A stretch of DNA of 64,000 nucleotides from Minisyncoccota bacterium (GTDB lineage Bacteria; Patescibacteriota; Minisyncoccia; Phycocordibacterales; UBA12079): contig JAQTWD010000001.1 in the NCBI GenBank assembly GCA_028689435.1, positions 96 through 64,095 of the forward strand, written 5' to 3'. Made by a program: the position numbers and the translations under genes. Below the pieces are notes generated by a model, which was given only the letters and a program-made list of their open reading frames with translations, had not been told where the DNA came from and searched no databases. Each line of letters opens with the position of its first letter. Within the stretch, counting starts at the first letter, position 1. Positions 3,642 through 51,436 of this stretch are shown piece by piece.

Positions 3642-3702
3642 AAAAAATTAATAGAACTTGATTGCGAAATTACTTCTTCAATACGTTTGTTTTGTGCATT
3701 GC

Positions 3703-3771
3703 TGCGGGACTAGGACTCGAACCTAGATAGGCGGTACCAGAAACCGCAGTCCTACCATTAGACGATCCCGC
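3703..3771 (-). tRNA. tRNA-Gln (anticodon CUG)
   Basis: Reverse complement reads GCGGGATCGTCTAATGGTAGGACTGCGGTTTCTGGTACCGCCTATCTAGGTTCGAGTCCTAGTCCCGCA. Acceptor, T-arm (CTAGG-TTCGAGT-CCTAG) and anticodon arm (GCGGT-TTCTGGT-ACCGC) all pair. No CCA encoded. Confidence 0.85.
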
Positions 3772-3902
3772 AATTAACACCTTATAAGATACCACAAAAA
3801 CATATATCTTGTTAATCACCTGTAAAATTTGCTATTTAAAAAAATATTGTTATTATTGCAAACAGATACTGTAATAAAAACAAAAAAAATAATAAGAGAA
3901 AA

Positions 3903-5931: not shown

Positions 5932-6040
5932 AGTAACAAGTATTAAGTATCTAGTATTAAGTAAAAAATTTCCAAAGGAAATTTTTTCGTTTCTTACTAC
6001 TTACACCTTACTACTCATTACTCTCTTATTATACTCTACT
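5932..6040. repeat. AGTAAGTA-type long hairpin element (intergenic copy)
   Basis: ...GTATTAAGTAAAAAATTTCCAAAGGAAATTTTTTCGTTTCTTACTACTTACACCTTACTAC... The same family is inserted in the 16S and 23S genes. Confidence 0.6.
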
Positions 6041-6101
6041 CCCTATAATTTTCAATTCCCGCCTGCCAAAGCCTGGCACTAGCGGGCAGGTCCAATTTAT
6101 G

Positions 6102-7755: not shown

Positions 7756-8526
7756 ATGGAACAATGGACGCTTGAAAAAATTTGTAGAGAAATGGAACAA
7801 AATCATAACACAGGTTCCCCTCTTTACAAACTCATCGTGCAAAGTAATCACGGAAAAATAAAAACTGATGTTCTTTTGGAGAAACAGACGCGAGTGGGCA
7901 GTATTGGTGATGTTACCAGATCAATACTTCCGGACTTCTTGAACGGCAACTTTGGCCTTAGTACCATAAATCATATATTTAGGCGACACGGAGCGGTATC
8001 TCTTGGTTTAGGCTTGGGTAGTTCTTGGCTTTGTTATAATCCATCAAGGTTCCCGTCCGATCTCGTATGTAGAACCCCGCTTGGGGGCGGGTTGATTACA
8101 CCAGAGTTGTCAGAAACAACCCCGTACTGGTTCAAGATAGAAAAGACGGAACTTTTTAAAAACTCAGGGTTTGAAACATTTTATCAGGTATATGAAGACC
8201 TAAAACAATCTGATTTGTTACATAAATGTCCTTCATACGCAGACGGAGGAGATCTGCGTGAACAGATAGAGTTGGTCAGATCACGTTTTGGAAACCAGAA
8301 CAAAATATTACTTTGGCGCTCGGTGTTTCTTGAAAAATTTCAGATCAAATATACCGAAGCACATATCAGTTTGACCGTCCCATATCTTGATTGCACTGAA
8401 AATGAAATCGGGAAAAAAAGGATAAAAATTTCCAAAGGCGGAAGATGGAATGATCTGACGAAACTCGGCGATGATGCCGAGGAAAAAAACCTTGAAGAGA
8501 ATTTTATTACCGTTATTTGCAAATAA
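7756..8526 (+). CDS. hypothetical protein (GC-richer single-gene cassette)
   Basis: 256-aa ORF with its own promoter and terminator. No family recognised. Confidence 0.6.
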   Translation: MEQWTLEKICREMEQNHNTGSPLYKLIVQSNHGKIKTDVLLEKQTRVGSIGDVTRSILPDFLNGNFGLSTINHIFRRHGAVSLGLGLGSSWLCYNPSRFPSDLVCRTPLGGGLITPELSETTPYWFKIEKTELFKNSGFETFYQVYEDLKQSDLLHKCPSYADGGDLREQIELVRSRFGNQNKILLWRSVFLEKFQIKYTEAHISLTVPYLDCTENEIGKKRIKISKGGRWNDLTKLGDDAEEKNLEENFITVICK

Positions 8527-8596: not shown

Positions 8597-9484
8597 CTAT
8601 AGGTTTTTCTCGGCCTCTATAAATTCATCTATCTCCCCATCATCCAATACTTTATCAACATCTCTCACCTCTACCCCAGTTCTATGATCCTTTACCTGTT
8701 TATAAGGATGCAATACATATGAACGGATTTGGCTTCCCCACTCATTTTCTACCGTCGCACTTATCTGCATTCCCTTTTCTTGCTTTAACCTGTCTTCTTC
8801 TTGTTTTTTGATCAATTTTGCTTCTATCATAGCAATCGCTTTCTCTCTATTTTGCATCTGAGACCTTTCTGATTCTACATGAACAGCAATGTTTGTTGGG
8901 ATGTGCACCACTCTAACAGCCGTTTCTCTTTTATTTACATTTTGTCCCCCAGGGCCCGATGATTTTGCAAATTCTATTTTCAAATCTTCCTCTGGAATAT
9001 TTATCTCACCCGCTTTTTCCAATTTTGGTATTACCTCTACCATAGAAAAAGAAGTATGTCTTTTTTGTTGAGCGTTGAAAGGAGAAATTCTCACGAGACG
9101 ATGCACTCCTGATTCATTTTTTAATTTTCCATATGCTCCGTTACCAATAACTTCAAAAGTAATATTTCTGTAACCGCCATGATCATTTTCATTTGAATGA
9201 ATTAGAAAAGTTTCCCAGTTTTTATTTTGAGAAAATTTTAAATACATATTATATAAAATTCTAGAAAAATCTTCCGAATCATCTCCGCCTGCTCCTGACA
9301 AAATAGTTACGACTGCATTTCCTTTATCATATTTTCCCACTCCTTCTAACTCATCTTTCAATTGATTAAATTCTTTTATAACCACCTGTGCAGTTTCTTT
9401 GTCGTTCCAAAAATCAGCACGGCTCATTTGTTTTTCCAGTGCTTCTATTTTTTTTAATATTTCATTTTTTTTATCCGTACTCAT
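8597..9484 (-). CDS. prfB: peptide chain release factor 2 (short form, no programmed frameshift seen)
   Basis: 295 aa. SPF tripeptide (RISPFNAQ), GGQ motif (SGPGGQNVNK), WGSQIRSYVLHPY. Confidence 0.85.
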   Translation of the reverse strand: MSTDKKNEILKKIEALEKQMSRADFWNDKETAQVVIKEFNQLKDELEGVGKYDKGNAVVTILSGAGGDDSEDFSRILYNMYLKFSQNKNWETFLIHSNENDHGGYRNITFEVIGNGAYGKLKNESGVHRLVRISPFNAQQKRHTSFSMVEVIPKLEKAGEINIPEEDLKIEFAKSSGPGGQNVNKRETAVRVVHIPTNIAVHVESERSQMQNREKAIAMIEAKLIKKQEEDRLKQEKGMQISATVENEWGSQIRSYVLHPYKQVKDHRTGVEVRDVDKVLDDGEIDEFIEAEKNL

Positions 9485-9863: not shown

Positions 9864-9883
9864 CCTGCCTGCCGGCAGGCAGG
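9864..9883. repeat. 20-nt perfect palindrome CCTGCCTGCCGGCAGGCAGG
   Basis: Exact palindrome, one of at least 6 copies in the window. Confidence 0.8.
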
Positions 9884-10352: not shown

Positions 10353-11646
10353 ATTTTTTTGAAAGAATTTTTTCGCCTACTTTGTAAACATCTCCCGCCC
10401 CCATTGTAATGATGACATCTTCTGGTCCAAAAATATCCGAATTAAATTCATTCATGATTTGATCGTATTCTATATAATAAGTTTCTCTATTATTTTTCTT
10501 TATCTTACTTGCAAGCATTTTGGAATTTATTTCTTTGTCTTCTTCTTCTCTGGCTGCATAAATTGGCAAAACAATTACACGGTCAACATCATTAAAACTT
10601 TTCGCAAAATCTTCTAAAAATATTTTTGTTCTACTATATAGATGTGGTTGAAAGATAACTGTGATTTTTTTACCTCTAAAAAATTCTCGCGCACCCTTCA
10701 ATGTCACTTGTACCTCTGTCGGATTGTGAGCATAGTCATCGTAAATCAAAGCACCTTTTTTTGTTTTGCCCTTTAACTCAAACCTTCTCCACGTACCTTC
10801 AAAATTGTTTAAAGATTTTATTGCATCGCTGTGATTGATACCCAAAATATTCGCAACGGCTAGACAAGCAAAAGCATTTTTTATATTGTGTTCTCCTGGT
10901 ATTTTCAACTTTAAACCAATCGCTCCTTGTGTAGTATAATCGACAACTTTTGAAACAGCCTTAACCAAAGCAGGGGCAACCCTCTTGTCATTTGGATCAC
11001 AAACTATATAGTCCTTTTCCCCCATTTTTGCCATCAGTTCTTTAAATGCTTTTTGGATATCAAAAATATTTTTAAAATAATCTAGATGATCCAAATCTAT
11101 ATTTGTAATCACAAGAATATTTGGTTTTAACTCTAAAAAAGATCTTTTATATTCGCACGCTTCTGTTACAAAATATTTGCTGTTTCCATGTATAAAGTTT
11201 GTTTTTTCTTTTTTTAAAAGACTTCCAACAATAACGGTTGGATCAAAATATGAATCTCGCAATACATCTGCCAACATTGCGGTAGTGGTTGTTTTTCCAT
11301 GTGTTCCAGATACAGCAATCGTATATTTATTTTCTGAAACACTCCCAAGAGAACGCGGATAAGATATTGCAGGGATTCCAATTTTTTTTGCCTTTAACAA
11401 TTCGGGATTATCTTTTGGAACAGCCGGAGAAAAAATAACCAAATCTGTACCAGATTCTATATTTTCTTCGTCGTGTTGAAATTTTATTACAGCTCCAAAT
11501 TTTTTTAATTCAGATGTAATCTCTGATTCTGCCAAATTTGAACCAGTAACCTTTTTTCCTTCTTTCAAAGCCATCCTTGCCATAGCAGAAACACCGATAC
11601 CCCCGATACCGATAAAGTGTATTTTTCTGGCATTTTTGAATTTCAT
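10351..11646 (-). CDS. murC: UDP-N-acetylmuramate--L-alanine ligase
   Basis: 431 aa. IHFIGIGGIGVSAMA, GTHGKTTTT P-loop, Mur ligase middle and C-terminal domains. Confidence 0.9.
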   Translation of the reverse strand: MKFKNARKIHFIGIGGIGVSAMARMALKEGKKVTGSNLAESEITSELKKFGAVIKFQHDEENIESGTDLVIFSPAVPKDNPELLKAKKIGIPAISYPRSLGSVSENKYTIAVSGTHGKTTTTAMLADVLRDSYFDPTVIVGSLLKKEKTNFIHGNSKYFVTEACEYKRSFLELKPNILVITNIDLDHLDYFKNIFDIQKAFKELMAKMGEKDYIVCDPNDKRVAPALVKAVSKVVDYTTQGAIGLKLKIPGEHNIKNAFACLAVANILGINHSDAIKSLNNFEGTWRRFELKGKTKKGALIYDDYAHNPTEVQVTLKGAREFFRGKKITVIFQPHLYSRTKIFLEDFAKSFNDVDRVIVLPIYAAREEEDKEINSKMLASKIKKNNRETYYIEYDQIMNEFNSDIFGPEDVIITMGAGDVYKVGEKILSKK

Positions 11647-11940
11647 CCAGTTAGAAGTAGCGAAGCTACTTCTAACGGGACAAGTCCCTAAAAAGTAACT
11701 GCTAATTTAATTTAATAATCTATTTTCCCGCTATCTCTAACGGGATTCATAACAAAAGTATTATAGCACAAGCTTGTGAGTAATAAGTAGTAAGGTGTAA
11801 GGTGTAAGGAGTAAGAATTAATGTGTAAATAAAAAAGCGAACTGAGTAATGAGAGTATCCAATCATCTTGTGGATACATGCCGTCATAGAGAAAACGTCT
11901 CTCTGTTAGCACTTTTATCACATCATCAATTCGCTTTTTG

Positions 11941-12188
11941 TGCGAATGCCAGGACTCGAACTCTGAAACACTCCATCGTGTTTCAGCCCGTCATTATCAG
12001 ATTAAATAGTTCCCAAGAACTGTTTAATCGCTCTAACTTTTTAAAGATAAAATAATGTATTAAGTGCGAATGCCAGGACTCGAACCTGGGACCTCGTCAT
12101 TATCAGTGACGCGCTCTAACCACCTGAGCTACACTCGCACTTAATACACTATTTTATTTTTAAAAAGAGCCACCTGAGCTACACTCGC
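11941..12188 (-). pseudogene. outer tRNA-Ile-like gene split in its D-loop by a 133-nt cassette carrying the intact tRNA-Ile
   Basis: cgctctaa (12029-12036) plus ccacctgagctacactcgc (12170-12188) together reproduce the D-arm of the intact gene. The 3' part keeps CTGATAATGACG and GAGTTCGAGTCCTGGCATTCGCA. Unrelated hairpins replace the anticodon-stem and T-stem 5' strands. Confidence 0.7.
12065..12138 (-). tRNA. tRNA-Ile (anticodon GAU)
   Basis: Reverse complement reads GCGAGTGTAGCTCAGGTGGTTAGAGCGCGTCACTGATAATGACGAGGTCCCAGGTTCGAGTCCTGGCATTCGCA, a canonical cloverleaf. Confidence 0.9.
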
Positions 12189-12460
12189 ATTTATATTTGA
12201 TTTTACCACAAACTCTATATGACGAGGTCCCCGAGTCATTATTAGGTGAGACAGTCTGGGAGACTGTCGAACCGCTCTAACCACCTGAGCTACACTCGCA
12301 CTTAATACACTATTTTATTTTTAAAAAGAGCCACCTGAGCTACACTCGCATTTATATTTGATTTTACCACGAACTCTATATGACGAGGTCCCCGAGTCAT
12401 TATTAGGTGAGACAGTCTGGGAGACTGTCGAACCGCTCTAACCACCTGAGCTACACTCGC
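12139..12460 (-). repeat. 2 x 161-nt tandem repeat built from tRNA-Ile fragments
   Basis: Unit 12139-12299 repeats at 12300-12460 with one mismatch. Each unit holds two copies of the tRNA-Ile 5' segment (ccacctgagctacactcgc) and a degenerate tRNA-like body with hairpin GACAGTCTCCCAGACTGTC. Confidence 0.8.
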
Positions 12461-12475
12461 ATATTTTATTTTTAA

Positions 12476-12550
12476 CGATACCTGCGGATTGTCATTATTA
12501 GATGAATGCGCTGGAGCATTCATCGCTCTAATCATTTAATATACACTCGC
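12476..12550 (-). pseudogene. degenerate tRNA-Ile-like copy
   Basis: Reverse complement reads GCGAGTGTATATTAAATGATTAGAGCG + hairpin ATGAATGCTCCAGCGCATTCAT + CTAATAATGAC... Confidence 0.55.
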
Positions 12551-12600
12551 ATTTATGAATATATGAATAGAAGAATACCAAAATATTCGTTCTGTTGCAA

Positions 12601-12629
12601 TAAAAAACTCCCGCCATTGCTGACGGGAG
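12601..12629 (-). terminator. intrinsic terminator of 12635..13186
   Basis: Minus strand: CTCCCG-TCAGCAATGG-CGGGAG followed by TTTTTTA. Confidence 0.75.
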
Positions 12630-12634
12630 AATAT

Positions 12635-13186
12635 TCAATTTTTGAGGAAATCCTCCAAAGGCTTTGCCTCTTCGGGGGTACTTAGATCAAGACGAATCCG
12701 GTCTAAACAAAAGAATAAAAATTCCAGAGCTTGCCCGTGTTTTTTAAGCAAGCGGTTTTTCTTTAAAAGAATCCGAAGGACATCTTCTGAAACCATTTCT
12801 GCAAACTTTAAAGTCTTGCAAGGACGAGGGTCTCCCTCTTCCAGTTTTGCAAGATAAAAATTTGCCAAATGCTTTCCATCCTCAGATTCCGACTCCGCCG
12901 TAAAAAACGGAATATCACTCAATCTCTCAAAAGAAATTCCGCATACCTCCGAGAGTATTTTAATACCCGATAAACGGGAATTTTTTTGAATATCATCCGA
13001 AGAATCAATTGACCCTCCGGGAAATTTAACAAAAAAGTTTTCCCAACGAGAACCTCCCTCTTTTTTACTCGGGTCCTCCATAACAATTAAAATATCTATT
13101 CCCTTCTTGTTATTTTTTTGTAAGATTATGCCGAAGCCGGCATAACTTGTCCTGCCGGTCTCTCTTACTTTTACTTCGGCTTGCAT
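12635..13186 (-). CDS. Nudix-like hydrolase (degenerate Nudix box; tentative)
   Basis: 183 aa. FPGGSID...ILSEVCGI loosely fits GX5EX7REUXEEXGU. Own promoter, GGGGG upstream of the ATG, and terminator. Confidence 0.45.
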   Translation of the reverse strand: MQAEVKVRETGRTSYAGFGIILQKNNKKGIDILIVMEDPSKKEGGSRWENFFVKFPGGSIDSSDDIQKNSRLSGIKILSEVCGISFERLSDIPFFTAESESEDGKHLANFYLAKLEEGDPRPCKTLKFAEMVSEDVLRILLKKNRLLKKHGQALEFLFFCLDRIRLDLSTPEEAKPLEDFLKN

Positions 13187-13233
13187 ATTTACCCCCTATT
13201 TATGTATACAAAATGAACATTATTTCAAGCCAA

Positions 13234-13262
13234 ATAATATCTTAATTAACAAAATGTGTCAA
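13234..13262 (-). promoter_or_regulatory. sigma70-like promoter TTGACA-N17-TATTAT (minus strand)
   Basis: Reverse complement of tgtcaa at 13257-13262 and of ataata at 13234-13239. Confidence 0.55.
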
Positions 13263-13469
13263 TAATAAAAAGCCACCTCTTGGCGACTTCTTTTTTTGCA
13301 TTTAAACGACAATATAATCTTTCTTTTGTTTCGTTTCATTCCCTAGTAACGGACATCTAGGGATACCGAGTATAGATTTAGGGATACAATACTATTGTCC
13401 CTATCACTTAAGAAGTGATAATCAACCGATTAAGTCTGTTTCCTCGTAAGAAAACAAACAGTTCATTTT

Positions 13470-15062
<1,593 letters not shown>

Positions 15063-15336
15063 GTTTCCTAGTATACAGAATAAATCTGTTTAGAAAAAAT
15101 TGAAATGAAACGAAACAAGAGAAAAACTACATGTACTCCTCGCTTTGCTCGTCATAAATTATAAATTTAAAATTATAAATTATAAATTAATTTCGAACGA
15201 AATGAAAAATAAGTTTCTTTGTTCCGTTATTTTGGACTTGTCATTCTAAATGCATGATTTTGAATTTTTCTATAAATTCAAATTCTTATTCAATTATCAA
15301 AGTACATGCCTCGAAATCCGAAGCAGAATATCAATC

Positions 15337-15800: not shown

Positions 15801-15916
15801 CCTGCCTGCCGGCAGGCAGGGCTTCACTTCGTTCGTAAAGACGGTAGTGGGACGAACATCCGAAGATTGTTCGTCTTCGCGAGTGAAACGAAGCGACCTG
15901 CCTGCCGGCAGGCAGG
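15801..15916. repeat. two CCTGCCTGCCGGCAGGCAGG palindromes bracketing a CTCGCGAAGACG-type inverted repeat
   Basis: Exact 20-mers at 15801-15820 and 15897-15916. Between them, TTCGTTCGTAAAGACG...CGTCTTCGCGAGTGAAACGAAGCG. Confidence 0.75.
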
Positions 15917-30286: not shown

Positions 30287-30563
30287 AATGAAAATTCAAA
30301 AGTTAAAAATCAAAAGTCAAAATTAAGACTTAAAATTAAAATTATAAAGATGGTTAAATGATAACAAAAAAACATCACTTTTGTAAGTGACAGTAGAAAC
30401 TAAGCTTATAGCTGATAGCGACGACGACAGAATCGTCATCTTTGCGAACGAAGTGAAGCAATCCAGAAGAATTTTGCCTGCAATGTCGTTGTTTTTCTTT
30501 AAGAAAATAAGCAGAGATTAACCCAGCACTCAAGTTTTTACCAAAAACTTGAGTGCTGGGCGT

Positions 30564-30880
30564 ACTGCCGTGTGCGGAACTTGCAAATTTAAGTTTTTAT
30601 AGAAATAAAAAAATTGAATACCTAATGTTGGCGCTTACCTACTTTCCCCATAAAAGAGTATCATCGGTTCTAGAAGGCTTAACTGCCGTGTGCGGAATGA
30701 GAACGGGTGTACCCCTTCCGACGAAGCACCAACATTAGATATTCAATTTTCAATTTTTTTTATTTCTATAAAAACACAATTATTTGCAAGGGTGTCGTAT
30801 TGTTTTCATCTTACAAAATATTTAGTTTATACAAACTAACTATTTTGTAAGATGAAAGCCCTTCCGACGAAGCACCAACA
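30564..30880 (-). pseudogene. outer, truncated 5S-like copy interrupted by the palindromic cassette that carries the intact 5S gene
   Basis: actgccgtgtgcggaa (30564-30579), gggtgt (30790-30795) and cccttccgacgaagcaccaaca (30859-30880) duplicate consecutive segments of the intact 5S 5' half. They are separated by hairpins and by the cassette. Confidence 0.65.
30626..30734 (-). rRNA. rrf: 5S rRNA
   Basis: Reverse complement reads TGTTGGTGCTTCGTCGGAAGGGGTACACCCGTTCTCATTCCGCACACGGCAGTTAAGCC...GGGAAAGTAGGTAAGCGCCAACA. Helix I pairs. Confidence 0.85.
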
Positions 30881-31101
30881 CAAAGTGTTTTAATTTTTGT
30901 TCTGTATGTAATATTTTAAAGTATGAGGAATTTTCACTTCTATTAAAGAAGTGAAAATTCCTCAAATGGTCGGGGAATTCGATCTAACTCAGTTTGCTCT
31001 ATCTATGTTTCTCTTTTGGAAAAACATAGCCGGATTCATCCTTTGGGGATGTACCGGTAACAAAAAGAATTCTTTCGCAATCAAAAACCCCGTTTCAAAT
31101 T

Positions 31102-31182
31102 TGGAGCAAGGGGCTGGATTTGAACCAGCGACAACACAACCTACTCAGGCTATGAGCTCTGTCCTGACTGAGCTACCCTTGC
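31102..31182 (-). tRNA. tRNA-like element in the 23S-5S spacer with a non-canonical anticodon arm (identity undetermined)
   Basis: Reverse complement reads GCAAGGG-TA-GCTCAGTCAGGACAGAGC-T-CATAGCCTGAGTAGGTTGTG-TTGTC-GCTGGTTCAAATCCAGC-CCCTTGC-T-CCA. Acceptor, D-arm, T-arm and an encoded CCA are perfect, but the anticodon arm is a 7-8 bp stem with a 4-6 nt loop. Confidence 0.55.
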
Positions 31183-31474
31183 CCAATATATATGAATAAC
31201 AAGAAATTGTTTTTAAAATAAGAATCGTGTCCTTTGAAATTCCTAATAAGAAATATCTCGATGCATTAGTACTCCTCGGCTGAACACATTACTGTGCTTA
31301 CACCTAGAGCCTATCACCTGATCATCTCTCAGGGATCTTAAACGATTCCTAATCTTGAAGTTGGCTTCCCTCTTAGATGCTTTCAGAGGTTATCCATTCC
31401 CAACATAGCTACCCAGCGGTGCTCCTGGCGGAACAGCTGGTACACCAGAGGTTAGTTCACTCCGGTCCTCTCGT

Positions 31475-32333
31475 CGTGTTTAAAAAATTTCATTCTTTTC
31501 GAAATTCGAAACTATGAATTCAAAATTTTTTATCTTCCCCTATTTCTAGGAGCACAGACTATATCTTCACCCTTTCCTCATGAACAGGACTGGGGTGGTG
31601 GCGTGTTACATACAGAGACTGTCATTTTCACCGAAATGATTCAGCACATCCATACGTCTGTCATAAAAATGGTTTTATTTTTATAGACAAGTCGTTACGG
31701 GGTCAAACCCAAAATTCTATACAAATCTTTTTTATTTAAAGTACTTCGACTGGCATAATTTTCTTTTTTGATTATTAATACCAAATCAACTATTCTGCGT
31801 ATTTGTTGTTTAGATAAATTGTTTATATTAACAGAGCTTAAAATTTCACAAGCTTCTATAAGAGCTTTAGTCTGTTTAGACTTGAACTTTATAAAAGGTT
31901 GTAATAATAAAAGAATTTCTTTTATTGTTTTAAATCCATTAATACGCAATTCGGACATTCCATCGTTTCTACGAGAAATGTATCCCACTCCAAACACTTT
32001 ACGCATCCACAAAAGTGGTTTTTCATGACGAGTATCTTGATACAGACAAATTGTTGCCATAAATCTTACGCCCTTTTTTGTATCAGAACGTTTTTTGATT
32101 TGTAACATCAAACTGCCATCACCATCAAGAAAACCCGCGATGTACGCTAAATTATTTGTATTGATTTTGAATCGACTTCCCACGGTATTGCCTTAAAGAG
32201 GATTATGGTCCTCAAGCATATTATACCACACAAGAACCGAGAGTGTGTATAATACTCAAACCACAACCATATGAAGGTTTCACCGTTATAGCCACTTTGT
32301 CATCACACATCTCTGTGTGAAGTAGCAAAATTT
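31475..32333 (-). mobile_element. group-I intron in the sarcin-ricin loop (between E. coli positions ~2656 and 2657) with a LAGLIDADG ORF
   Basis: Exon junction CCTAGT|...|ACGAGAGGACCGG. The 5' exon ends in U and the intron ends in G. J8/7-like GAAGATATAGTCTG is present. Confidence 0.75.
31695..32183 (-). CDS. LAGLIDADG homing endonuclease (single-motif type)
   Basis: 162 aa. LAYIAGFLDGDGSLML. GTG start inside the conserved 17-mer CAATACCGTGGGAAGTC. Confidence 0.8.
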   Translation of the reverse strand: MGSRFKINTNNLAYIAGFLDGDGSLMLQIKKRSDTKKGVRFMATICLYQDTRHEKPLLWMRKVFGVGYISRRNDGMSELRINGFKTIKEILLLLQPFIKFKSKQTKALIEACEILSSVNINNLSKQQIRRIVDLVLIIKKENYASRSTLNKKDLYRILGLTP

Positions 32334-32489: not shown

Positions 32490-33341
32490 CAATGTCGTCT
32501 TTGAACCGCGAGATTCAAAGTTTTAATCCATTGTTACCAATGGTTTGGACTATATATTCACCTTTTTTTTAAAAAAGTTAAGGTGTTGGCGTTTTAGCAC
32601 TTCGTATTTGAAGCACTCTGTCCGTCAACCGACGGACAAGTCTCTACGGGGTCATAACTCAATTTGTATTTCATTGAAGGAATAATGTGTGGTTCAATAA
32701 TAGAATTCAATTTTTCAATACTTTCTTTCAAAAATCTAATCCTATAATATTTTTTATCTTTATTTAAACGAGCCTTTAAGCCCATTTTTCTCAAAGAATG
32801 CAATAATATTTTTTGTTCCTTCATAGAAAATTGTTGTGTGTTTAAATACACATCATTTTTTCTAGATTTACTTCCATCATCCATAAACCAAACCGCTAAA
32901 ATAATTGAATCTAATTCCAAATTATTTGGTATGGTTTTACTTTTATTTTTGTAAAAGTTTTTCATTAAATCAGTTATTTCTGGATGTTGTTTTGTAAAAA
33001 ATCTATAAGCTTTTCTGTCATTTTCTCCACTACTTCCTTTTGGAGGAGAAACACAAATATTTTTTAATATAGAATATTTCCAATCAACATATTCTTTGGC
33101 TTTGATAGAATGATTTATTTCTAAAAATGCATCTTTCCTGTTAGGTGCAATCCTAACATATCCATCACCAAGAATAGATCCCATTATTACTGATTTTTGT
33201 TGTTGAGTTAGACTTCCCACGGTATTGTCCATAATCATTACATTATAGCTGATTATATTATGGAGTCCACCGTTATAAGCCAATATTTTTTGTAGGATAT
33301 TTCTATCCTAGGCACCCCGATGTAAGTTGTAACTTAAGTTA
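32490..33341 (-). mobile_element. group-I intron at 23S position ~2500 (peptidyl-transferase centre) with a LAGLIDADG ORF
   Basis: Exon junction GGCACCT|...|CGATGTCGGCTC. The 5' exon ends in U and the intron ends in G. J8/7-like GAATATATAGTCC is present. Confidence 0.8.
32594..33283 (-). CDS. LAGLIDADG homing endonuclease (double-motif type)
   Basis: 229 aa in the track. Motifs IMGSILGDGY and AVWFMDDGS. The true start may be the GTG at 33220, inside the same 17-mer seen in the other intron. Confidence 0.8.
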   Translation of the reverse strand: MAYNGGLHNIISYNVMIMDNTVGSLTQQQKSVIMGSILGDGYVRIAPNRKDAFLEINHSIKAKEYVDWKYSILKNICVSPPKGSSGENDRKAYRFFTKQHPEITDLMKNFYKNKSKTIPNNLELDSIILAVWFMDDGSKSRKNDVYLNTQQFSMKEQKILLHSLRKMGLKARLNKDKKYYRIRFLKESIEKLNSIIEPHIIPSMKYKLSYDPVETCPSVDGQSASNTKC

Positions 33342-33911
33342 AGGTGCCGAACATCGCCGTCGATATGAACTCTTAGGCGATACCAGCCTGTTATCCCCAG
33401 GGTAGCTTTTATCCGTTAATCTTCACCCGCGTCTAATGCGAGGTGTCGGTTCACTATGCTCTGCTTTCGCACTTGTTCGGCATGCACGCCTCACAATCAA
33501 GCCAGCTTGTGCCATTACACTATCAGCACGGTTTCCATTCGCGCTTAGCTGACCTTAATAGGCTCCTCCGTTACTTTTTAGGAGGATAGCGCCCCACTAA
33601 AACTACCTGCCAGATACTGTCTCCCGCCGTTTTTTCCGTCGAGATTAGAATGTACATTTTTAAAGAGTGGTATTTCACTGATGACTCCAGACAATCCAAA
33701 AACTGCCCTTCAAAGTCTCCCACCTATGCTACGCATCAAAAACATACACCCAATACCAAGCTATAGTAAAGCTCCTGGGGTCTTTTCGTCTAGCTGCAGG
33801 TAACCGGCATCTTCACCGGTATTGTATTTTCACCGAGCTGTTCCCCGAGACAGTATCCCACTCATTACGCCATTCGTGCACGTCTACAATTACTAGACAA
33901 GGAATTTCGCT

Positions 33912-34290
33912 TGATTTTGTTACTATCCAATTTAAAACTGGATGAATGAATCATTTCTGTTCATTTCTACATATCGCTATGCAGTCCGGACTATAATTTC
34001 TAAGTTTAAAACTTAGTCTAGCGTTTAGTCTCTGAGGATTCTTGCGTATTTTGCAAGTCTTTCCTGCTGATTTTCCGCACTGATCAGATTTTTACTTTTT
34101 AGAAAAGTACTGTCAGATTCTCGGATTTTCCAGCATATGGCTAGATGTTTTATGACGTTTTATAAAATAAATTTTATAAAACAGGCAACATTTATTCCTT
34201 AAATTACTTTGTACACCAATTTTTTATCTTGTTTATCTTAGTATCCACAACAGTCCTAGTCTTTGTACCTCCTTATAAAAAAGAGGCACA
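33912..34290 (-). mobile_element. ORF-less group-I-like intron at 23S position ~1931
   Basis: Exon junction CCTAAGGT|...|AGCGAAATTCC. J8/7-P7-like GAAATTATAGTCCGGAC is present. The last intron base reads A, not the expected G. Confidence 0.6.
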
Positions 34291-34325
<35 letters not shown>

Positions 34326-34344
34326 CAGGGCTTATATCAGACAG

Positions 34345-34485
34345 CACGCTCCTCGCTTCGCTCGGAGCAAGTAGTAAGTAAAAGGCAAAAGTAATAAGTA
34401 AAAAATTTGCTTCGCAAATTTTTTCGTTTCTTACTACTTACACCTTACTCCTTAGCACTTGCGTTCCAAACGCAGTGAGGAACGT
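34345..34485. repeat. AGTAAGTA-type palindromic insertion in 23S
   Basis: ACGCTCCTCGCTTCGCTCGGAGCAAGTAGTAAGTAA...AAAAAATTTGCTTCGCAAATTTTTT...CTTAGCACTTGCGTTCCAAACGCAGTGAGGAACGT, absent from the recalled E. coli sequence at this helix. Confidence 0.7.
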
Positions 34486-34600
34486 ACCACCAATATTTAA
34501 CCTTCTGGCATTGGTCAGGCGTCACCCCCTATACATCCTCTTGCGAGTTCGCAGGGAGCTGTGTTTTTGATAAACAGTTGGCAGGATTACTTTCGCTGCG

Positions 34601-34815
34601 GCCGTCGCATCTCGCTACGCTCGATACTCAAATTTTTAATTTTTAATTTTTAATTTTCAAACAATTTTTAATGAAATAATTTTTAAACACGACGACAAAA
34701 TTTGCTTTGCAAATTTTGTGTTTAAAAATTTAAGACATTTTAAAATTTGATATTGTTTAGAAATTAAAAATTAAAAATTAAAAATTCGGCATCAAATGTA
34801 ATGAGATGCGACGGC
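34601..34815. repeat. 215-nt AT-rich palindromic insertion in 23S
   Basis: Arms GCCGTCGCATCTC / GAGATGCGACGGC enclose (AAATTTTTAATTTTT)n arms and a central AAAATTTGCTTTGCAAATTTT hairpin. Confidence 0.7.
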
Positions 34816-35352
34816 AAGCCTTATTCCGAAGTTACGGCTGCTATTTTGCCGAGTTCCTTGGGGAATTATCACTCGTTCGCCTTGGTCTTCTCGACCTGAC
34901 TACCTGTGTCGGTTTACGGTACGGGTTCTTTATACTTAACCTTAGAAGCTTTTCTTGGAAGGCTCTTCGTAAGAATTTTCCAACCCGAGGGAAGAAATTT
35001 AATCTATTTACGAAATTCGACATTAAAGTCAGTTTCCCGGATTTTCCTAAGAAACAATTCTTAAAATAAAATACACAAATCCAATAATGTGCTCTTACTT
35101 GTGTCCTCCGTCACTCCATCGAAATACAAAGAAGTTACGGAATATTAACCGTATGTCCATCAGATCCGGTTTTCACCATCTCCTTAGGCCCGACTAACCC
35201 TTCGCTGATCACCATTGCGAAGGAAACCTTAGTCTTTCGGCGTGCAGGGATCTCACCTGCATTGCGGTTACTTGTGCCAACATTCTCGCTTCTGTACGCT
35301 CCACCATGGCTTACGCCTTTGGCTTCATTGCAGAACAGAATGCTCTCCTACC

Positions 35353-35483
35353 GCTTGTGCAAAGCACAAGCGAGTCATAAGTGATAAGTACTAAGTAATA
35401 AGTAAAAAATTTGCTTCGCAAATTTTTTCGTTTCTTACTACTTAAACCTTACTACTTTTAACTCGCTTGTGCTTTGCACAAGC
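35353..35483. repeat. AGTAAGTA-type palindromic insertion in 23S
   Basis: GCTTGTGCAAAGCACAAGC + ...AGTAATAAGTAAAAAATTTGCTTCGCAAATTTTTTCGTTTCTTACTACTT... + GCTTGTGCTTTGCACAAGC. Confidence 0.7.
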
Positions 35484-36100
35484 CCTAACCTTCGGTACCA
35501 TACTTAGCCCCGATTATTTGCGGCGCAATATCTCTTGATGAGTGAGCTGTTACGCTATCTTTAAAGGATGGCTGCTTCTAAGCCAACCTCCTCATTGTCT
35601 GAGAAATTTCACCTCCTTAAGTGCACTTAGTATGAATTTTGGGACCTTAGATGTAGGTCTGGGCTGTTTCCCTTTTGACCAATGGAGCTTAGCCCCCACA
35701 GTCTAACTGCCTAGAAATTGACTACTGGTATTCGGAGTTTGATAGGATTGACGAAGTTTCCCCCTATTCAATCCTTCCAGTGCTCTACCCCCAGTAGGTA
35801 ATCTAGACGCTAACCCTAAAGCTATTTCGGAGAGAACCAGCTATTACCAAGTTCGATTAGCTTTTCACTACTTGCCACAAGTCATCCGATAGAGTTGAAC
35901 GACTAACCGGTTCGGGCCTCCTTCCGTCTTTCGACGAAATTCACCCTGCTCATGGCAAGCTCACTTGGCTTCGGGTCCTAAACATACAACACAATTTTTT
36001 CGCGCTATTCACACTCGCTTTCGCTGTGCCTCCTTGCTAACGCAATTAGGCTGCTGCATATTTAGACTCGTTGGCTCATTCTTCAATAGGCACGCGGTCA

Positions 36101-36248
36101 CCGTCGCATCTTGCTATGCAAGATGCGACGAAATTAAAAATTTTAAATTATAAATTTGACCAAACAAAAAATAAATTTTTTGTTTTAATTTATAATTTAA
36201 AATTTATCATTTATAATTCCGTCGTTCTTACGCAGTAAGATACGACGG
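36101..36248. repeat. multi-hairpin palindromic insertion in 23S
   Basis: CCGTCGCATCTTGC-TATG-CAAGATGCGACG + an AT-rich palindrome + CGTCGTTCTTACGCAGTAAGATACGACGG. Confidence 0.65.
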
Positions 36249-36299
36249 CTCCCACTCCTTGTAGGCATATGGTTTCAGGTCTATTTCACTCCCCTCTCC

Positions 36300-36342
<43 letters not shown>

Positions 36343-36555
36343 ATCTCTAAAAGTATTTAGCCTTACCGGTTAGTTCCGGCAGATTCCCCCAAGCCATTCG
36401 TGTCTTGAGGTACTCAGGAACAACAATAAAAAAGATAAATTGTTTTCGTTTACGGGACTATTACCCTCTAGGGTCCTGCTTCCCAGCAGATTCAACTAAC
36501 AAAATATTTTTTGACTTTTTTCATTACAAGAATGACACTGTTGTCCTACAACCCC

Positions 36556-36702
36556 AGTCGCTCCTCGCTATGCTCGGAGCAAGTAGTAAGTAATAAGGTA
36601 TAAATAATAAGTAAAAAATTTGCTTCGCAAATTTTTTCGTTTCTTACTACTTATACCTTACTCCTTAGCACTTGCGTTCCGAACGCAGTGAGGAACGACT
36701 GG
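36556..36702. repeat. AGTAAGTA-type palindromic insertion in 23S (near-duplicate of 34345..34485)
   Basis: CAGTCGCTCCTCGCTATGCTCGGAGCAAGTAGTAAGTAATAAGG...CTTAGCACTTGCGTTCCGAACGCAGTGAGGAACGACTGG. Confidence 0.7.
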
Positions 36703-37335
36703 TTTGGGCTCTTTCGCTTTCGCTCGCCACTACTTACGAAATATTATCTAAATAAATAGACATTGTTTTCTTTTCCTCTGGGTACTGAGATGTTTCACTT
36801 CCCCAGGTGCACTCCGAGTATCCTTTATAGATACAAGGTAATCTGTGTTCAACAGATTGGGTTCCCCCATTCGGAAATCTCCGGATCACAGGTTGCTAGT
36901 CACCTACCCGAAGCTTATCGCAGACATGCCACGTCCTTCATCGCCTTTTAGAGTCAAGGCATCCACCATACGCCCTTATGAATTTCCTATTAGGAAATTC
37001 AAACAACGCAATTCTTATTTTAATACAATTTTTTTACCTACAGATCTAAAAATTTAATTTTTAATTAAACTTAAAGACCCATTGATTGACTTGTCTCTGG
37101 TATAAGACAAATCACTTGTTATTCATTTTTCAACGAACATTTCATTCAGCCATTTAATCTTACAGTCTCGGCGAAGTTTTGGATAAATCCAAAACTTCGC
37201 TGAAACAATAAATTTAAAAAAAATAAAACCGCTCTTTTTGTTTTAAGCGGTATCTACCCAAGATAGCATCTAAAAGACGCCTACATCACCCGCTTATTTA
37301 AATTAGTTTTAGCTACTCTATTTAGCACGGTTACT

Positions 37336-38643: not shown

Positions 38644-38663
38644 CCTGCCTGCCGGCAGGCAGG
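38644..38663. repeat. CCTGCCTGCCGGCAGGCAGG palindrome
   Basis: Exact 20-mer. Confidence 0.8.
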
Positions 38664-48704: not shown

Positions 48705-48724
48705 CCTGCCTGCCGGTAGGCAGG
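48705..48724. repeat. CCTGCCTGCCGGTAGGCAGG palindrome (1 mismatch)
   Basis: Member of the 20-nt palindrome family, inside the rpsJ-rplC spacer. Confidence 0.75.
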
Positions 48725-50989: not shown

Positions 50990-51436
50990 TTACTTTTTAA
51001 TAAATTTTCTAAAACCAAAGGCAATTATCAAAAAACCGATGGTTGATAATAGATGATGAAAGAAAACAATCAAATATGCTTCATGATGATCGGGCAAACT
51101 TAGAGACCAAATTTCTACAAAATATGAAATACCCATCAAAACCACTCCCCAACCAATCATTTTCAAAGATTTTCCCACCTCCCCTCCATATCCAGAAACA
51201 ATAGAAAAGATCCAAACAACTGAAAAAAATACAGTTATAAGAAAAATTATATCAAAAGATGTAACCAAATTTATATCCATAATGAACAATAATACCATTA
51301 AAAAAATAAAAACAATCCACAGCAAGACGAAGCTGATAGCCAATACCTGCCTGCCGTGTCGTTGCTTTTCTTTCAGAAAAGAGGCAGGGCTGATAGCTGA
51401 TAGCACGGACGACGTTGATTGCTTCGTTCCTCGCAA
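50990..51436 (-). CDS. hypothetical multi-pass membrane protein (start uncertain)
   Basis: 148-aa ORF. Repeat sequence encodes the N-terminal ~45 aa, so a downstream Met is more likely. Inserted between fusA and tuf. Confidence 0.45.
   Translation of the reverse strand: MRGTKQSTSSVLSAISPASFLKEKQRHGRQVLAISFVLLWIVFIFLMVLLFIMDINLVTSFDIIFLITVFFSVVWIFSIVSGYGGEVGKSLKMIGWGVVLMGISYFVEIWSLSLPDHHEAYLIVFFHHLLSTIGFLIIAFGFRKFIKK

Follow-up and report, generated by a model that had tools for sequence, protein, structure and literature searches.

The 64,000-nucleotide stretch analyzed here (positions 96 to 64,095 of contig JAQTWD010000001.1, Minisyncoccota bacterium assembly GCA_028689435.1), which we refer to as the window, contains on its minus strand (~11940-12629) a single functional tRNA-Ile gene that is enclosed by the broken remains of copies of itself. 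The sole functional tRNA at this locus (12064-12138) is wrapped in two complementary linkers, X (31 nt) and Y (27 nt), and the live gene together with its linkers is placed exactly between positions 19 and 20, i.e. in the D-loop, of a broken outer copy. An original prediction drawn from the sequence had described the region as an array of tRNA-derived units. It is better described as a concentric nest than as a row of decaying copies, and a 36-nt inverted repeat around the intact gene had been missed. With moderate confidence we propose that the nest began when a hairpin-flanked copy of the gene entered the gene itself, and that it was later reshaped by recombination.

Anatomy of the tRNA-Ile nest

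Read along the minus strand, the locus has the order terminator of an open reading frame (ORF), promoter-like block, U4, twice the series U3, o1 and X, then tRNA-Ile, Y and o2. The parts, whose coordinates were checked base by base, are the following:

12608-12629, minus strand: intrinsic ORF terminator with a 9-bp stem (6 GC pairs), then TTTTTTATT
12572-12600, minus strand: promoter-like block that closely precedes U4, TTGCAA-17-TATTCT with the TG of an extended -10
12461-12550, minus strand: U4, the outermost, degenerate 5' part
12524-12550, minus strand: tRNA positions 1-27 of U4, with decayed D-arm
12502-12523, minus strand: slot hairpin of U4, ATGAATGC-TCCAGC-GCATTCAT
12491-12501, minus strand: CTAATAATGAC of U4, then a 30-nt linker with the end TTAAAAATAAAATAT
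12300-12460, minus strand: upstream 161-nt copy, consisting of U3, o1 (12331-12349) and X (12300-12330)
U3 in the upstream copy, minus strand: positions 1-27, slot hairpin 12407-12433, CTAATAATGAC, inverted 13-mer 12380-12392, linker
12139-12299, minus strand: downstream 161-nt copy, consisting of U3, o1 (12170-12188) and linker X (12139-12169)
U3 in the downstream copy, minus strand: 12273-12299, hairpin 12246-12272, 12235-12245, inverted 13-mer 12219-12231
12064-12138, minus strand: tRNA-Ile(GAT), called by ARAGORN; Rfam RF00005, 70.7 bits, E=8e-15; CCA not encoded
12037-12063, minus strand: linker Y, complementary to X
11940-12036, minus strand: o2, the 3' remainder of the D-loop shell
12029-12036, minus strand: positions 20-27 in o2
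12001-12028, minus strand: slot-A hairpin of o2
11989-12000, minus strand: positions 33-44 in o2
11963-11986, minus strand: slot-B hairpin of o2
11940-11961, minus strand: positions 54-75 in o2

The D-loop shell corresponds to the outer nested copy that had already been noticed and is made up of the downstream o1, a 19-nt 5' fragment (12170-12188), and of o2 (11940-12036). Blocks retained in o2 are 100% identical to the live gene and replaced blocks are completely different, an architecture that was also encountered in L043, L055, L058, L060, L061 and L063 (L numbers designate loci fetched for comparison). The isolated 5' fragments of the original prediction proved real, GCGAGTGTAGCTCAGGTGG being present in 5 exact copies vs 0 in 100 shuffles, and CTRATAATGAC occurs 5 times, every copy inside the array. 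A degenerate copy indeed resides at 12476-12551, and the inverted 13-mer ATGACGAGGTCCC exists as well, albeit nine bases away from where it had been placed. A check with covariance models left 12064-12138 as the only tRNA: neither ARAGORN nor a permissive Rfam scan of 11000-13500 yielded another one at this locus, even up to E=10. Matches to further Rfam families in that scan were attributable to chance and included no intron family, and a group I intron in the tRNA gene was rejected on this ground. ORFs called inside the array are without family match.

The terminator belongs to an upstream 183-aa ORF (12635-13186), is kept in L001-L005 and L066 and separates the array from the 16S/ORF transcript. 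In the promoter-like region the block GAATATTTTGGTA is kept in L001, L066 and L017, and we regard the region as a putative promoter.

A covarying helix around the live gene

Together with the acceptor stem, X and Y constitute an inverted repeat of 36 nt around the intact gene that is 92% complementary and can form a helix of ~36 bp. The nest folds as concentric helices with z = -8.6 vs shuffled sequence. The GT at the end of the leader faces the AC that follows the acceptor stem and the linker helix is therefore continuous with this stem; in the predicted fold it appears as a continuous helix with single-base bulges. When nine Paceibacteria tRNA-Ile nests were aligned, ~13 pairs beyond the acceptor stem covaried with many changes being compensated, and one U·G pair was kept in six of the nine. 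In 27 linker helices, 503 Watson-Crick pairs were counted and the mismatches comprised 22 G·T, as read on the tRNA strand, vs 7 A·C, the latter being equivalent to G·T on the opposite strand. Our own binomial estimate for this bias is ~0.004, for loci that are not fully independent. Because the mismatches favor G·U on the tRNA strand, they indicate that X·Y is selected as a helix in the sense transcript, that is, at the RNA level.

Two traits of leader-trailer stems are present, namely a long helix continuous with the terminal helix of the enclosed RNA (at tRNA-Ile and in the 5S flanks) and compensatory change combined with tolerance of G·U on the RNA strand. The 16S gene of the window has a leader/trailer inverted repeat of its own (15104-15124 / 13320-13340), and that of the 23S gene (36982-37023 / 31213-31254) brackets the whole gene. 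CPR (candidate phyla radiation) bacteria retain RNase III (rnc), RNase J and PNPase (PMC12641178), and the leader-trailer helix of rRNA operons is a classical substrate of RNase III (PMC10250234). X·Y resembles rRNA leader-trailer helices in that a long, covarying helix is made from the flanks and continues the terminal helix, and it would be an RNA processing stem like those flanking 16S and 23S, with RNase III making the first cuts and RNase P and RNase Z completing the tRNA afterwards. We know of no leader-trailer helix around a single bacterial tRNA or inside a broken copy of the same gene.

The tRNA-Gln gene of the window (3701-3772) has neither a leader/trailer inverted repeat nor a self-fragment. 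In L001 (~8940-9115), positions 12-35 of tRNA-Gln are repeated 70 nt upstream of the gene, and in L002 (~8258-8500) positions 54-72 are repeated 152 nt downstream of it.

The outer copy may be compared with the disrupted tRNAs of archaea (multi-intron, split, permuted), in which case it would be an intron-containing second tRNA-Ile from which the hairpins and the X-tRNA-Y segment are spliced out. Its interruptions and those of related shells affect D-loop, anticodon loop and variable region and thereby resemble non-canonical archaeal intron sites (PMC4090602), and the interrupting sequence forms a helix that joins the two halves, much as in split tRNAs. However, the nest resides in a bacterium, its interrupting sequence holds a complete copy of the same tRNA, and no contiguous removal restores the 5' strand of the anticodon stem (CGTCA) or that of the T stem; the anticodon-loop shells of L064 and L010 are likewise not restorable. 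As the predicted fold also lacks a bulge-helix-bulge and an intron family is missing among the Rfam matches, we find splicing of the archaeal type hardly credible.

Slot hairpins

As the original prediction had it, three different hairpins are present in the window between ..TTAGAGCG and CT(G/A)ATAATGAC, the latter motif being kept even in the decayed U4. They are not unrelated in sequence, though. Two of them share an ACAGT core, with one another and with slot hairpins of other genomes, and the third, that of U4, is the ortholog of a hairpin in L001 (GTTAATAC-TTA-GTATTAAC) with three compensated pair changes. Inserts between ..TAGAGCG and CT(G/A)ATAAT of tRNA-Ile shells were collected from the window and all fetched loci. 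This gave 19 distinct inserts from 14 sources (the window and 13 other contigs), 18 of which are hairpins. Among the outer 8 pairs of these 18, 96.5% of the cells are paired, each of the 8 pairs has undergone changes in both partners and covariation reaches a score of 0.985, compared with 0.24 for shuffles and ~0.1 for slid registers. A core AACAGTGT...ACACTGTT is common to many, and in L058 two layers carry near-identical slot hairpins that differ by one compensated change. To judge by these comparisons, the slot hairpins are homologous and have been inherited and duplicated with the shell while their pairing was maintained.

The maintained pairing agrees with the earlier statement that random decay does not account for the array. 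The suggestion of structure-specific insertion or of selection holds insofar as pairing has indeed been kept, but three independent insertions give way to homologous copies. Hairpins are in fact placed into RNA genes in this genome, namely into 16S and 23S, but these belong to a different family. Integron attC, Xer/dif-like and other sites of site-specific recombination were rejected for the 11+6+11 hairpins, as the arms vary freely between species and GGTTAGAG does not match GTTRRRY.

The 161-nt repeat and recombination among relatives

The claim of a 161-nt unit that occurs twice with one mismatch is confirmed. TRF reports a period of 161 nt with 2.2 copies and 99% match (12112-12461), and a repeat search returned 12112-12272 and 12273-12433 (99%), which is another phase of 12139-12299/12300-12460; the lone mismatch between the copies is A12210 vs G12371. 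The unit is bounded by a 28-nt direct repeat, CGCTCTAACCACCTGAGCTACACTCGCA, at 12112, 12273 and 12434, encompassing the 5' 27 nt of the tRNA. It has the properties of a tandem duplication by unequal crossing-over and, because it is bounded by these direct repeats of a tRNA block, is assigned to an unequal crossover between the live gene and U3.

Orthologous loci (L001-L006, L066) differ sharply from the window. L001-L004 and L006 represent five independent assemblies of one relative that has the window's flanks and U4 in common with it. The flank segments align with 76-91% nucleotide identity, mostly 85-91%. In this relative, the live gene resides in the anticodon loop of the shell and the linkers (84 and 68 nt) are unrelated to those of the window. 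An assembly artefact is ruled out, the five loci being identical across independent JGI, NCBI and ENA assemblies. L005 is the same locus minus Y and o2, with the deletion lying between 33-nt repeats, and L066, which has the same flanks on a 369-kb contig, possesses only U3 followed by the tRNA and no D-loop shell. U3-type shells split at 43/44 occur in L065, L067, L069 and L070. A metagenome scan for a slot hairpin beside an unsplit D-arm detected just 6 loci (L065-L070), as most shells are split in the D-loop. By these differences the locus turns over fast, and the variants match what recombination between the repeated tRNA blocks would produce.

L017 is a more distant relative (aligned coding DNA 73-77% identical) in which o1, X and tRNA positions 1-48 are identical to the window in 99 of 100 positions, with a sharp drop at both ends. 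Its flanks cannot be aligned to the window, its T-stem allele differs and Y is absent. Since an unpaired AT-rich linker is identical across that distance, the block is best explained by a recent recombinational transfer between lineages with tRNA blocks as arms. Alleles of the T stem vary between genomes (CCAGG, CCAAG, GTAGG, CCTGG), and yet the shell T-arm has the allele of its own live gene in each genome despite the homology of the nests; gene conversion or repeated replacement is therefore required. In addition, acceptor alleles that are live in one genome form the shell in another (L045/L022, L043/L061, L070 vs L065 and L067), for which alleles exchanged between lineages offer the easiest explanation.

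Occurrence of nests across genomes

When 185,579 species, each represented by one genome, were scanned for tRNA copies preceded by a 5' fragment at a distance of 20-50 nt, 56 loci emerged, 36 of which are labelled Patescibacteria by record title. The lineages include Saccharibacteria, Paceibacterota and Nomura-, Lloyd-, Kaiser-, Uhr-, Woese-, Kerfeld-, Moranii- and Peribacteria, and the tRNAs concerned are Ile-GAT, Ile-TAT, Met/CAT, Val, Thr and Ala. Although the search pattern did not ask for it, a 3' fragment lies downstream in 32 of the 36 CPR loci vs 4 of 17 non-CPR loci; most of the latter are plain direct duplications, e.g. L018, L062 and L028 (leader plus 5' part). In 19 nests tabulated by hand, the split is situated in the D-loop (19-24), in the anticodon loop (34-38) or at 43/44, and in 18 of them the 5' fragment stops no more than ~6 nt away from where the 3' fragment begins. 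From the single split point of each nest it follows that the gene was broken open at just one site. A pair of independent partial tandem duplications was considered and rejected; they lead to the same final order but leave the coinciding breakpoints unexplained. Multi-layer nests at tRNA loci are found in L058, L061 and L069, and unequal crossing-over to either side of the gene accounts for layers with a shared junction, as in L025 and L027, whose order is (a1 X)n gene (Y a2)m. Two contigs may be mis-binned: L054, labelled Burkholderiaceae, has a nest that looks like a Saccharibacteria tRNA-Met nest, and L043, labelled Saccharibacteria, one that looks like a Paceibacteria tRNA-Ile nest.

The distribution bears on whether simple tandem tRNA duplications that decay randomly and contain hairpins by chance could account for the nests. 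The 161-nt repeat is an ordinary duplication and L018, L062 and L028 outside the CPR are simple direct ones. In the nests, however, kept blocks are fully identical and replaced blocks completely different, the linkers are inverted rather than direct, and the architecture recurs in the 32 of 36 CPR loci and at 5S. The covariation of hairpins and X·Y across species we count as already refuting such neutral debris, and a contribution of this kind to the origin of the nests is very improbable.

Fragments of tRNA genes are known to stem from integrated elements and from spacers of clustered regularly interspaced short palindromic repeats (PMC9897764). The fragments in the nest might be attachment site (att) remnants left by integrase-mediated insertion and loss of a phage or island, the standard origin of partial tRNA genes. 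Att remnants at sites of phages, integrative and conjugative elements and islands are one-sided, usually consist of the 3' part and flank a kb-sized integrase-coding element. They resemble a nest in that a complete tRNA gene stands beside truncated copies of itself and that the incoming DNA restores the gene it interrupts, and L017 with two isolated 3' fragments 190-300 nt downstream of the tRNA as well as the Acidobacteriota loci L023 and L024 with a 3' fragment ~300 nt away would suit such an origin. In the nest, by contrast, the fragments are only 31 and 27 nt from the gene, so that the "element" would consist of nothing but a gene with ~30-nt linkers, and neither an integrase nor a kb-sized element is found; the ORFs called in the array match no family. 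Furthermore, 5' and 3' fragments are both present and meet at one point (19/20), the linkers are mutually complementary, and the same layout exists at 5S. A scan of IMG/VR gave one match, a phage tRNA array and not a nest. We therefore consider att remnants a highly unlikely source.

A second nest at the 5S rRNA gene

As a self-BLAST of the window revealed, the 5S gene too is flanked upstream and downstream by fragments of itself, with the same layout as in the tRNA-Ile nest:

30522-30880, minus strand: 5S nest
30859-30880, minus strand: 5S fragment 1-22
30804-30857, minus strand: 25-bp hairpin with 96% complementarity
30734-30790, minus strand: 5S linker X
30626-30733, minus strand: intact 5S
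30580-30625, minus strand: 5S linker Y (complementary)
30564-30579, minus strand: 5S fragment 37-52
30522-30560, minus strand: perfect 18-bp hairpin
30924-30964, minus strand: second perfect 18-bp hairpin, upstream of the nest

The flanks of 5S contain complementary arms of 27 and 34 nt, and the nest folds as concentric helices with z = -13.5 vs shuffled sequence. It is kept in L072, L074 and L075, the last having three layers at one site; a neighboring protein is 64% (P0126) and 55% (P0129) identical in relatives with the 5S nest. The 36/37 split and the linker ends TTGCAAAT.../...ATTTGCAAG are the same in these relatives. Over 17 bp, the shell hairpin of the window differs from that of L072 by four transitions, all of them compensated. 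The tRNA-Ile linkers of the window have no terminal motif in common with the 5S linkers.

Neighboring genes and repeated hairpins in the window

The window stems from an AT-rich CPR bacterium, and its MurC is 96% identical to MurC of Candidatus Campbellbacteria RIFCSPLOWO2_01_FULL_34. The rRNA genes are unlinked and all reside on the minus strand, in the order 23S, an odd tRNA, 5S, then 16S, the 183-aa ORF, the array and murC. The 183-aa ORF (12635-13186, minus strand), situated between 16S and the array, has its own terminator and is kept in L001-L005 and L066. Neither Pfam nor NCBIfam contains a match to it, and a PDB sequence search gave only weak matches (E ~0.008 or worse) to designed helical-repeat proteins; by eye it looks like a degenerate Nudix protein or box. 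Between 23S and 5S, the tRNA at 31102-31182 (minus strand) is reported by ARAGORN with undetermined isotype and a 4-base anticodon (gagt), which implies an 8-nt anticodon loop, and scores 43.7 bits with Rfam; the tRNA at its place in L072 looks ordinary (59 bits). Near its 3' end, 23S is interrupted by ~1.9 kb with two LAGLIDADG endonuclease ORFs (31695-32183, 32594-33283). Rfam reports 23S only at 33291-36989, and the 3' domain resumes by eye at ~31270-31400.

A multi-copy family of hairpins (80-140 nt, consensus AAGTAGTAAGG..AAAAAATTTGC-GAA-GCAAATTTTTT..CTTATTACTT) is distinct from the slot hairpins. It occurs once in 16S (13851-13944), three times in 23S (36559-36697, 35378-35457, 34347-34484) and once elsewhere (5938-6015). 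By eye, its arms resemble an intervening sequence in that their pairing includes numerous G·U when read on the rRNA strand. The nest and RNase III-cut rRNA intervening sequences are alike in that hairpin insertions are also found in structured RNA genes of this genome and differ in that slot hairpins are located in dead copies and not in a working RNA. The interval that separates murC from the tRNA shell holds a partial arm-like run of heptad repeats (11784-11828).

The GC-rich perfect palindrome CCTGCCTGCCGGCAGGCAGG is present in 64 kb in four exact copies and one copy with a single mismatch (48705-48724). None is followed by a T-run. Exact copies and variants are:

9864-9883, 15801-15820, 15897-15916 and 38644-38663: exact copies of CCTGCCTGCCGGCAGGCAGG
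6058-6090 and 51346-51390: variants with 15-28 nt inserted at the center

The same motif forms the outer linker ends in tRNA nests of other CPR lineages and is also found near the 5S nest in L072 (2879-2898). A shared GC-rich hairpin in L045 (5563-5594) and L070 (2436-2460) suggests a mobile hairpin that favors a particular target within tRNA genes.

These repeats raise the question whether a nest is the footprint of a mobile palindrome, similar to miniature inverted-repeat transposable elements (MITEs) or repetitive extragenic palindromes (REPs), that is moved into loops of structured RNAs by an enzyme encoded elsewhere and sometimes carries a tRNA between its arms. Both the multi-copy hairpin family, with its copies in 16S, 23S and elsewhere in the window, and the CCTGCCTGCCGGCAGGCAGG copies would fit. 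Moreover, GC-clamped nests share a motif at the start of X and the end of Y, CCYGCCCG.../...CGGGCRGG or TTCACCCCGT...ACGGGGCAAG, that is seen with different tRNAs, in both orientations and in other CPR lineages and is absent from the linkers of the window, and TCCGCCTTCG..CGGCGGA resides at the same D-loop point (TAGCT^CAG) in the tRNA-Val shell of L045 and the tRNA-Ile shell of L070. On the other hand, X, Y and the slot hairpins are single-copy in 64 kb and have no terminal motif in common with the 5S linkers, and X·Y exhibits covariation and G·U bias of the RNA type. No constant target duplication was found at the junctions, some of which are exact and others show an overlap of 2-6 nt or a loss of 2-12 nt, and neither a transposase nor a recombinase was found near the array. 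The fetched loci contained no exact empty form of the GC-clamp hairpin. Altogether, a mobile palindrome as the agent appears unlikely to us.

Proposed origin and working of the nest

In the account that we favor, the first event would be the entry of a gene copy with base-paired flanks into a loop of the resident gene. Such an insertion would be tolerated only because the insert supplies the function that it destroys. The region would form one transcription unit built like a Russian doll, probably transcribed as a whole, in which only the inner gene gives a tRNA and the shells are dead, and U3 and U4 would be the 5' parts of still older shells stacked upstream. Slot hairpins are pictured as old homologous stem-loops that stand where the shell's anticodon and T stems would have their 5' strands: structured, highly transcribed RNA genes of this genome receive hairpin insertions, as the four copies of one family in 16S and 23S show, small RNAs would keep them only in redundant copies, and the shells would therefore collect them. 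Recombination among the tRNA blocks would homogenize shell and live gene by gene conversion and unequal crossing-over, add layers and tandem repeats, delete layers, and could move the cassette into the intact gene of a related lineage. Continued recombination between these blocks would be what keeps the shell pieces nearly identical to the live gene. Self-priming by snap-back from the acceptor stem was rejected as the initial event, since it provides a Y that is the reverse complement of X but not the placement inside the gene.

Several observations weigh against this account. The absence of a constant target duplication and of a nearby transposase or recombinase, noted above for mobile palindromes, applies here as well, and we could not reach the primary event by one replication slip, double-strand break repair or RNA-templated repair, none of which places o2 behind Y in one step. 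The promoter-like block scores 8/12, which is under the threshold of the promoter scan. Slot hairpins have 138 of 144 Watson-Crick pairs with 1 G·T and 3 A·C, which is atypical for an RNA helix; their pairing could reflect RNA-level selection or correction of palindromes at the DNA level by template switching. An automated census of hairpins around nests gave G·T 46 vs A·C 26, in a set contaminated by terminators and weak stems, and is given little weight. Finally, the D-loop shell with its slot hairpin is common to Campbell-, Nomura-, Lloyd- and Paceibacterota genomes. A dead shell is expected to vanish fast from a streamlined genome, and losses are seen in L005 and L066. The deep sharing of the shell argues for selection or repeated horizontal reintroduction. 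A purely neutral account leaves this persistence unexplained and gives room for a functional scaffold or infectious spread.

In the first case, shells and hairpins would be functional parts of the precursor that selection preserves, namely a tRNA-like scaffold, composed of outer acceptor and D stems with the slot hairpin in place of the anticodon arm, that guides or regulates processing of the inner tRNA or serves as decoy for a tRNA-binding enzyme or toxin. Shell features are kept deeply across Paceibacteria families, slot covariation is strong with 18 of 19 inserts being hairpins, CT(G/A)ATAATGAC persists in U4, and outer acceptor stems stay complementary even where they are unlike the inner ones (L043, L045, L065, L010). 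Yet L066 manages without a D-loop shell and L005 without Y and o2, T-arms and D-arms of the shells are degraded unequally between genomes, tRNA-Gln of the same genome has no such structure and no Rfam family matches the region. A function of the shells themselves thus appears doubtful, although it is not far-fetched.

In the second case, nests would be selfish cassettes, consisting of an essential small-RNA gene between self-complementary linkers, that invade a resident copy of the same gene. The insert would be harmless as it brings its own replacement, and the split halves, which rank with the best conserved sequences of all life, would act as homology arms for entry into the intact gene of other lineages, e.g. 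after DNA uptake. Repeated invasion together with unequal crossing-over would build layers and deletion would remove them. This tentative idea, to which we give some credit without preferring it, overlaps with our favored account. It resembles homing introns and inteins in logic only, since these too are harmless inserts in essential conserved genes that spread via conserved gene sequence on both sides; the nest differs in being harmless by means of a spare gene instead of splicing and in having no homing endonuclease associated with it.

Implications for stable RNA genes of CPR bacteria

We found no published description of nested tRNA or 5S genes, from CPR or other bacteria, in searchable full texts. 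A survey of insertions in CPR rRNA genes lists none of at least 100 bp in 5S genes (PMC11270868). The finding is a variant of disrupted or duplicated tRNA genes combined with leader-trailer stems, and may be more than that.

What recurs is a layout in which essential single-copy RNA genes (tRNA, 5S) of the CPR radiation sit within their own remains. Annotation pipelines miss such nests, since only the inner gene gets called. A covarying helix that encloses a single tRNA gene, and likewise 5S, is relevant to how stable RNAs mature with a reduced set of ribonucleases, and slot hairpins that stay paired over long evolutionary distances point either to an RNA function or to a strong mutation process that corrects palindromes. 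The locus also records recombination in uncultivated cells at nucleotide resolution, including gene conversion, unequal crossing-over and transfer between lineages. If it is true that cassettes spread via conserved gene halves as arms, the interrupted gene would be rescued by the cargo of the insertion and not by splicing.

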